This document shows, one piece after another, positions 14,776 to 17,034 of a stretch of 64,000 nt of DNA (the first letter of the stretch is position 1; every line of letters starts with the position of its first letter). The translations under genes and the position numbers were made by a program. Under the pieces are notes generated by a model that saw only the letters and a list, made by a program, of their open reading frames with translations, did no database searches and had not been told where the DNA came from. The DNA lies in NCBI RefSeq assembly GCF_056746865.1, contig NZ_CM163382.1. One strand, 5' to 3'.

Positions 14776-14849
14776 TTTCACACCGCCAGCTCAGCTGGCG
14801 GTGCTGTTTTGTAACCCGCCAAATCGGCGGTAACGAAAGAGGATAAACC

Positions 14850-16994
14850 GTGTCCCGTATTATTATGCTGATCCCTACCGGAACCAGCGTCGGTCTGACT
14901 AGCGTCAGCCTTGGCGTGATCCGTGCAATGGAACGCAAAGGCGTTCGTCTGAGCGTTTTCAAACCTATCGCTCAGCCGCGTACCGGTGGCGATGCGCCCG
15001 ATCAGACTACGACTATCGTGCGTGCGAACTCTTCCACCACGACGGCCGCTGAACCGCTGAAAATGAGCTACGTTGAAGGTCTGCTTTCCAGCAATCAGAA
15101 AGATGTGCTGATGGAAGAGATCGTCGCGAACTACCACGCTAACACCAAAGACGCTGAAGTCGTTCTGGTTGAAGGTCTGGTCCCGACACGTAAACACCAG
15201 TTTGCCCAGTCTCTGAACTACGAAATCGCTAAAACGCTGAATGCGGAAATCGTCTTCGTTATGTCTCAGGGCACTGACACCCCGGAACAGCTGAAAGAGC
15301 GTATCGAACTGACCCGCAACAGCTTCGGCGGTGCCAAAAACACCAACATCACCGGCGTTATCGTTAACAAACTGAACGCACCGGTTGATGAACAGGGTCG
15401 TACTCGCCCGGATCTGTCCGAGATTTTCGACGACTCTTCCAAAGCTAAAGTAAACAATGTTGATCCGGCGAAGCTGCAAGAATCCAGCCCGCTTCCGGTT
15501 CTCGGCGCGGTGCCGTGGAGCTTTGACCTGATCGCGACTCGTGCGATCGATATGGCTCGCCACCTGAATGCGACCATCATCAACGAAGGCGACATCAATA
15601 CTCGCCGCGTTAAATCCGTCACTTTCTGCGCACGCAGCATTCCGCACATGCTGGAGCACTTCCGTGCCGGTTCTCTGCTGGTGACTTCCGCAGACCGTCC
15701 TGACGTGCTGGTTGCCGCTTGCCTGGCTGCCATGAACGGCGTAGAAATCGGTGCCCTGCTGCTGACTGGCGGCTACGAAATGGACGCGCGCATTTCTAAA
15801 CTGTGCGAACGTGCTTTCGCTACCGGCCTGCCGGTATTTATGGTGAACACCAACACCTGGCAGACTTCTCTGAGCCTGCAGAGCTTCAACCTGGAAGTTC
15901 CGGTTGACGATCACGAGCGTATCGAGAAAGTTCAGGAATACGTTGCTAACTACATCAACGCTGACTGGATCGATTCTCTGACTGCCACTTCTGAGCGCAG
16001 CCGTCGTCTGTCTCCGCCAGCGTTCCGTTATCAGCTGACTGAACTTGCGCGCAAAGCGGGCAAACGTATCGTTCTGCCGGAAGGTGACGAACCGCGTACC
16101 GTTAAAGCAGCCGCTATCTGTGCTGAACGTGGTATCGCAACTTGCGTACTGCTGGGTAATCCGGCAGAGATCAACCGTGTTGCAGCGTCTCAGGGTGTAG
16201 AACTGGGTGCAGGCATTGAAATCGTTGATCCAGAAGTGGTTCGCGAAAGCTATGTTGGTCGTCTGGTCGAACTGCGTAAGAACAAAGGCATGACCGAAAC
16301 CGTTGCCCGCGAACAGCTGGAAGACAACGTGGTTCTCGGTACGCTGATGCTGGAACAGGATGAAGTTGATGGTCTGGTTTCCGGTGCTGTTCACACCACC
16401 GCAAACACCATCCGTCCGCCGCTGCAGCTGATCAAAACGGCTCCGGGCAGCTCCCTGGTATCTTCCGTGTTCTTCATGCTGCTGCCGGAACAGGTTTACG
16501 TTTACGGTGACTGTGCGATCAACCCGGATCCGACCGCAGAACAGCTGGCAGAAATCGCGATTCAGTCCGCAGATTCCGCTGCGGCCTTCGGTATCGAACC
16601 GCGCGTTGCTATGCTCTCCTACTCCACCGGGACTTCTGGTGCTGGTAGCGACGTAGAAAAAGTTCGCGAAGCAACTCGTCTGGCGCAGGAAAAACGTCCT
16701 GACCTGATGATCGACGGTCCGCTGCAGTACGACGCTGCGGTAATGGCTGACGTTGCGAAATCCAAAGCGCCGAACTCTCCGGTTGCAGGTCGCGCTACCG
16801 TGTTCATCTTCCCGGATCTGAACACCGGTAACACCACCTACAAAGCGGTACAGCGTTCTGCCGACCTGATCTCCATCGGGCCGATGCTGCAGGGTATGCG
16901 CAAGCCGGTTAACGACCTGTCCCGTGGCGCACTGGTTGACGATATCGTCTACACCATCGCGCTGACTGCGATTCAGTCTGCACAGCAGCAGTAA
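14850..16994 (+). CDS. pta: Phosphate acetyltransferase
   Basis: 714-aa ORF starting at GTG ([31 protein letters not shown]...); 74 nt downstream of ackA. Confidence 0.97.
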
Positions 16995-17034
16995 TCTCGT
17001 CATCATCCGCAGCTTTGCGCTGCGGATATCGGAA

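Follow-up and report, generated by a model that had tools for sequence, protein, structure and literature searches.

A 742-codon open frame antisense to pta in Escherichia coli, very probably a shadow ORF arising from translational codon bias

The pta locus and its antisense frames

The stretch of DNA used for the analysis (the window; 64,000 nucleotides) is a segment of the E. coli chromosome that runs from nuoF to fadL. Gene names were taken from the RefSeq annotation of E. coli EC31, to which the pta region is 100% identical. The gene at the centre of this study, pta (phosphate acetyltransferase; 14850..16994, plus strand), is a genuine gene and was found in 5,425 of 5,426 complete E. coli genomes. 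The list of open reading frames revealed a stop-free ORF on the minus strand (14778..17006) that begins with ATG, encodes 742 amino acids and spans all of pta.

A preliminary description made from the letters alone had pointed to this 2.2-kb antisense frame, to similar frames opposite ackA, nuoC, fabB and aroC, and to translations rich in arginine, valine, glutamine, threonine and phenylalanine. All of this was borne out, and the four additional frames lie exactly where that description had placed them. The frame opposite ackA (13573..14775, plus strand) occupies 13741..14781 on the minus strand and has 346 amino acids. The frames opposite nuoC (2159..3961, minus strand), fabB (40507..41727, minus strand) and aroC (46510..47595, minus strand) occupy 2249..3691 (480 amino acids), 40450..41637 (395 amino acids) and 47071..47685 (204 amino acids, a length that is unremarkable), all three on the plus strand. 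In the 742-residue product arginine accounts for 10.9%, valine for 9.3%, phenylalanine for 8.8%, glutamine for 7.8% and threonine for 7.7% of the residues. This richness arises because these residues are what the complements of the commonest pta codons encode: CTG yields glutamine, GAA and AAA yield phenylalanine, AAC and GAC yield valine, CGT and GGT yield threonine, and CCG and GCG yield arginine. The codon adaptation index (CAI) is 0.30 for the antisense ORF versus 0.66 for pta.

A terminator scan, the sequence itself and RNA folding all placed two tandem hairpins after the pta stop codon (17004..17061). The first has a GC-rich stem of 9-10 bp at approximately 17008-17030; the second, at 17031-17061, is the T-tailed pta terminator. 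The first hairpin past the pta stop may serve to stabilise the RNA or may belong to a bidirectional terminator. Read on the minus strand, the pair folds at -34.4 kcal/mol (z = -6.7), and it lies directly upstream of the first ATG of the antisense ORF and pairs with it. This ATG (17006-17004, minus strand) is thus met directly after the reverse of the pta terminator and is paired in a 10-bp GC-rich stem.

Two further features of the window were recorded. An Rfam scan of the whole window found no RNA opposite pta; its sole match at the gathering threshold was the cis-regulatory nuoG RNA motif (RF01748, 50.3 bits) at 277-319 on the minus strand, in the gap between nuoF and nuoG. By BLAST boundaries, the window carries an insertion of about 1.3 kb relative to EC31 (approximately 50286-51609) where a fimbrial subunit gene adjoins yfcO, an adhesin gene, which shows that the window derives from another strain. 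The insertion contains a 301-amino-acid ORF (50700..51605, plus strand) with rve, rve_3 and HTH_21 integrase domains, which identify it as an IS3-family (IS2-like) element. The element cuts the final codons off the fimbrial gene upstream of it and parts yfcO from its operon.

Frame geometry, codon usage and null models

Comparison of the five antisense ORFs with their sense genes revealed that all five pairs share the codon phase (identical phase of the lowest-coordinate codon, 5/5 pairs). This codon-aligned frame is the frame -1 of Mir et al.; in it, sense and antisense codons correspond one to one as reverse complements. It follows that the antisense stops TAA, TAG and TGA can come solely from sense TTA (leucine), CTA (leucine) and TCA (serine). 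None of these three codons occurs in pta, where they account for 0 of the 65 leucine codons and 0 of the 50 serine codons. Leucine is encoded by CTG (58), CTT (4) and CTC (3), with TTG, TTA and CTA at zero, and serine by TCC (18), TCT (16) and AGC (16), with AGT, TCG and TCA at zero. The claim of the preliminary description that antisense stop triplets correspond to rare sense-strand patterns is therefore correct, the patterns being TTA, CTA and TCA and all of them absent from pta.

Codons that have no bearing on antisense stops served as an internal control. TTG, AGT, TCG, ATA, AGA, AGG, CGA and CGG are likewise at zero in pta. Among them TTG, AGT and TCG would read as CAA, ACT and CGA on the antisense strand. 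None of these is a stop, and still the three sense codons are avoided as completely as the stop-generating ones. Since rare codons that generate no stop are equally absent, the avoidance reflects general translational codon bias. Ranking of the 57 window genes by CAI, with leucine and serine excluded and with the w values of Sharp and Li (1987), placed ackA, pta and fabB as the top three, with pta within the top two. Across the window genes the density of TTA, CTA and TCA climbs steadily as bias falls; pta, at 0, and flk, at 0.06 per codon, mark the two ends.

An alternative reading is that overall base composition or mutational bias, with few A/T-rich triplets available, keeps the frame open and that codon-level selection plays no part. 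Analysis of the four other alternative frames of pta revealed 34, 39, 23 and 37 stops, with a longest open run of 168 codons, against none in the aligned frame. Because only the aligned frame is open, overall base composition (GC content) is not the cause. Moreover, window genes of similar composition and low bias have 20-24 antisense-stop codons, as in fadJ with 20 in 714 codons.

The probability of zero stops in pta was estimated with nulls that resample codons synonymously. Shuffling codons within the gene, the null suggested in the preliminary description, would be uninformative, since the stop count of the aligned frame is set by the sense codon counts alone. Window-average synonymous usage puts the probability of zero stops at 3.6e-8; in simulations under it the longest run has a median of 132 codons. 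Taken at face value, a frame of 742 codons so far beyond the average-usage expectation would favour a genuine overlapping gene. As a sign of a gene this null was rejected, because the control codons are equally absent from pta. The average-usage null is the wrong comparison for this gene; a null needs to be conditioned on the gene's own expression-linked bias. With the codon usage of ackA and fabB the probability is 0.009, and with the Sharp-Li usage of highly expressed genes it is 0.036-0.039. A logistic regression of rare leucine and serine codon use on CAI at the other amino acids gave 0.0014. This value was not relied on because the model under-fits high-bias genes: it predicts 13.6 TTG, AGT and TCG codons in pta where none is observed, as with the stop-generating set.

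The expectation of the preliminary description that a codon null model would reproduce the length of the ORF held in part. Average usage fails to reproduce it (about 4e-8); nulls conditioned on bias reproduce it at 1-4%, and about 18% of orthologs show it. The per-gene probabilities of 0.009-0.039 are to be compared with 18% of pta orthologs that are fully open (see below), and pta represents an extreme outcome, yet one within reach of a strongly biased gene. Although the best-fitting codon-usage nulls give only 1-4% for a fully open frame of 714 codons, such a frame is plausible as one of about 4,300 genes. Nulls based on average usage badly overstate significance (4e-8), where a bias-conditioned null or an ortholog survey gives 1-18%.

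Analysis of the other four sense genes revealed the same rule at work. TTA, CTA or TCA occurs at four codons in ackA (5, 15, 33 and 57), six in nuoC (8, 57, 64, 77, 91 and 596), one in fabB (31) and three in aroC (190, 341 and 346), and the ends of the four codon-aligned ORFs coincide exactly with TTA or TCA codons on this list. The ackA ORF is bounded by TTA at codon 57, the nuoC ORF by TTA at codon 91 and TCA at codon 596, and the fabB ORF by the single TCA at codon 31. These ORFs are shorter than that of pta because their sense genes kept a few TTA or TCA codons, mostly near the 5' ends. With high-bias codon usage the probability is 0.15-0.30 for the ackA ORF and 0.15-0.24 for the fabB ORF, and 0.10-0.30 over ackA, nuoC and fabB together. 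For the aroC ORF even window-average usage gives a probability of 0.13, and a run of 199 codons occurs in a different antisense frame of this gene.

The positions of the retained codons were noted in their own right. In ackA, TTA 5, TCA 15, TTA 33 and TTA 57 (13585-13743, plus strand) all fall in the first 14% of the gene, whereas pta has none. The rare codons near the 5' ends of ackA and fabB are consistent with relaxed or AT-favouring codon choice there in highly expressed genes. In nuoC, 5 of the 11 leucine codons among the first 100 codons are TTA (8, 57, 64, 77 and 91; 3689-3940, minus strand) as against 0 of the 46 leucine codons that follow, and no TTG, AGT or TCG appears ahead of codon 181. 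The TTA positions recur in Citrobacter koseri and at a second orthologous locus (L092), in part in Rahnella (57, 64 and 91, plus 84) and at one position in a further locus (L093; 91), and they do not recur in another (L095). Their recurrence suggests that the 5' TTA cluster may be a conserved feature of the sense strand, for example for translational pausing or as a nucleotide-level signal. TCA at codon 596 of nuoC (2174-2176, minus strand), five codons before the stop, is conserved in 5 of 7 other genomes and falls in the likely translation-initiation region of the overlapping downstream gene nuoE (ORF 1656..2156).

Conservation, constraint and the search for a gene

Conservation of the aligned frame was analysed in pta orthologs from 80 Enterobacteriaceae loci of species-representative genomes (90-99% protein identity), of which 79 were usable. 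The frame is fully open in 14 of these 79 orthologs (18%) and interrupted in 65. Interruption extends to congeners: E. albertii pta has CTA at codon 327, and E. whittamii pta has TTA at codon 256 and TCA at codon 527. The open frames are scattered over Escherichia, Citrobacter, Enterobacter, Raoultella, Pluralibacter, Buttiauxella and others. The presence of stop codons in most species is evidence, independent of any model, against a conserved frame. Once three low-bias outlier genomes are set aside, the orthologs have 2.1 stops on average, from which the Poisson probability of zero is 0.125, compared with the observed 0.18.

Across the orthologs the antisense stop count correlates negatively with the CTG fraction (rho = -0.52) and positively with the number of control codons (rho = +0.43). 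It also falls with GC3 (rho = -0.38), as the base-composition reading would have it, but this correlation is weaker than that with the CTG fraction. Stop-generating codons are fewer than control codons across the orthologs (221 versus 403), a shortfall that fits the deficit of A-ending codons in GC3-rich enterics. Composition has a further point in its favour in one high-GC genome (CP070219.1; locus L087), where each strand at pta has an open run of more than 900 codons. Set against the 23-39 stops in each of the other four frames of E. coli pta and the stop-rich window genes of similar composition, these points leave base composition an extremely unlikely explanation.

The same genome and a second assembly (CP070218.1, locus L088) were informative as to gene calling. 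In both, the protein collection gives the antisense ORF as the gene and lists no call for pta. At L087 (1501-3663) the antisense call has 720 amino acids and is 42% identical to the E. coli antisense product. The ORFs on the two strands have 938 and 901 codons in these assemblies, and an ORF of 453 codons lies opposite ackA. The antisense call in place of pta is a mis-stranding artefact of the gene caller.

Frames opposite the neighbouring and distant genes are also interrupted elsewhere. In the flanks of the pta loci, the last approximately 173 codons of ackA are interrupted by one or more antisense stops in 15 of 78 species. Codons 92-595 of nuoC are broken in 6 of 7 other genomes (seven orthologous loci), leaving the frame open in E. 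coli and Rahnella only; these counts are to be taken with caution for C. koseri (locus L090), where the stops cluster at codons 548-569 and the call is truncated, probably through an assembly frameshift.

Comparison of the two readings of the same codon columns revealed constraint on the sense product only. Relative to the window sequence, dN/dS has a median of 0.054 for Pta; for the antisense reading the median is 2.6, a plain estimate that takes no account of the overlap and does not prove neutrality. Since the geometry of the overlap in part compels an antisense value above 1, we read it as no detectable constraint and not as positive selection. Median amino-acid identity is 94% for the sense product versus 67% for the antisense product. 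The frame is open in four E. coli strains that differ at 18-43 pta nucleotides; these differences change 17-38 antisense residues and 0-3 residues of Pta.

Database searches gave little that resembles a gene. Pfam yielded no family for any of the five antisense translations: three had 0 families at E <= 1 and two had sub-threshold noise only. The exact five sequences are absent among 15 billion proteins. A homology search with the 742-amino-acid product returned 11 sporadic unnamed calls among 5.8 billion clusters, two of which carry unrelated domains or Pta domains and look chimeric. No AGGAGG-like Shine-Dalgarno motif was found upstream of the first ATG. Promoter-like matches in the 13.4-17.4 kb region number 3 versus 2.8 expected from shuffling, which is no excess; one of them is a weak site on the minus strand upstream of the ORF (17120->17093).

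These results bear first on the possibility that the ORF is a genuine protein-coding gene overlapping pta in antisense, comparable to pop/ompA, asa, ano and laoB in EHEC, with its openness selected through its product. Besides its length, such a gene would account for the open frame in every one of the six E. coli-clade sequences analysed (the four strains and loci L003 and L006). Against it stand the broken frame in 65 of 79 species, the antisense dN/dS of 2.6 with a product that diverges 5-10 times faster than Pta, and the equal avoidance of the control codons. A domain and a Shine-Dalgarno motif are lacking, the start is sequestered in a hairpin, promoters are at chance level, and the protein databases hold the product only as the 11 sporadic metagenomic calls. 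We give this possibility next to no credence. The six open sequences may also reflect recent maintenance of the frame inside E. coli. A young proto-gene confined to the E. coli clade, in which the frame or a segment with an internal start is transcribed and translated at a low level and the codon bias of pta provided the openness at no cost, is very unlikely.

Parts of the antisense strand could instead be transcribed and translated at a low level, from internal starts and with no selected product. Pervasive antisense transcription and translation of short ORFs are documented in E. coli, and the weak site at 17120->17093 lies upstream on the minus strand. However, nothing specific to this locus was found in the literature searched, the promoter-like count equals the shuffle expectation, and a transcript from 17120->17093 must cross two strong hairpins. 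The high transcription of pta would be expected to collide with antisense transcription. Such pervasive expression we regard as unlikely.

Overall, our analysis suggests that the open frame opposite pta is very probably a shadow ORF, a passive outcome of translational codon bias with no hidden gene behind it. The preliminary description had proposed the same, and the codon alignment, the zero count of TTA, CTA and TCA, the absent control codons and the single open frame all agree with it. Direct observation covers the frame geometry, the codon counts and the controls, and likewise a frame that is not conserved and an antisense product that is not constrained. The mechanism is as follows. TTA, CTA and TCA rank with the least-used codons in strongly expressed E. 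coli genes. In pta, with leucine encoded almost only by CTG and serine only by TCT, TCC and AGC, no antisense stop arises. The probable cause is selection for the translational efficiency of pta, and the antisense frame would exist without translation into a functional product. The shadow ORFs opposite ackA, nuoC, fabB and aroC have the same origin. As a negative result, this means that the largest unannotated ORF of the window needs only the codon usage of pta as its explanation.

Comparison with known systems

Antisense overlapping genes (OLGs) reported in E. coli O157:H7 (pop/ompA, PMC7103648; laoB, PMC5810103; three OLGs, PMC9927249) are likewise embedded antisense to an annotated gene. 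They are much shorter than the pta ORF; pop, which is called exceptionally long, has 603 bp. Transcription, ribosome-profiling signal, promoter elements or phenotypes have been reported for them, and none of these was found for the pta ORF. Most relatives have the pta ORF interrupted, and its product is under no evident constraint. The names pta, ackA, fabB, nuoC and aroC do not appear in reviews and surveys of antisense OLGs (PMC7457138; bioRxiv 10.1101/2020.11.18.388249 with its 18 supplementary files; bioRxiv 10.1101/511675), a weak negative given that supplementary tables could list genes by locus tag; for pta, ackA and fabB, their not being mentioned in the E. coli survey and its 18 supplements is a further point against a genuine overlapping gene. 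Were the pta ORF a true gene, no other antisense overlapping gene in E. coli would come near it in length, but the evidence is strongly against its being one.

The result is a caution for gene callers and for screens that take long antisense ORFs as overlapping-gene candidates. AntiFam, a collection of spurious ORFs for cleaning annotations, includes models named shadow ORF. Spurious ORFs of the AntiFam type are like the pta ORF in that they are the wrong-strand translation of a conserved gene that gene callers occasionally emit, in this case 11 times in 5.8 billion clusters.

The pta shadow ORF is an already known phenomenon. Mir et al. (2012; PMC3454372) reported long ORFs in frame -1 to be a statistical consequence of codon usage in highly expressed E. 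coli genes. They attribute the codon-usage observation to Silke (1997) and an earlier description of such ORFs to Merino et al. (1994). According to Mir et al. (PMC3454372), the codon-usage explanation fails for the other alternative frames. Their argument that some long alternative-frame ORFs surpass statistical expectation could be cited in favour of an overlapping gene at pta, but they exempt frame -1 of highly expressed genes from it. The frame -1 shadow ORFs of these studies (Merino 1994; Silke 1997; Mir PMC3454372) are like that of pta in being codon-aligned, in owing their openness to the scarcity of TTA, CTA and TCA and in lying opposite a strongly biased host gene; their antisense products are unconserved, as for pta. 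Compared with them the pta ORF shows no substantial difference and is simply extreme, in that a whole gene of 714 codons does without the three codons.
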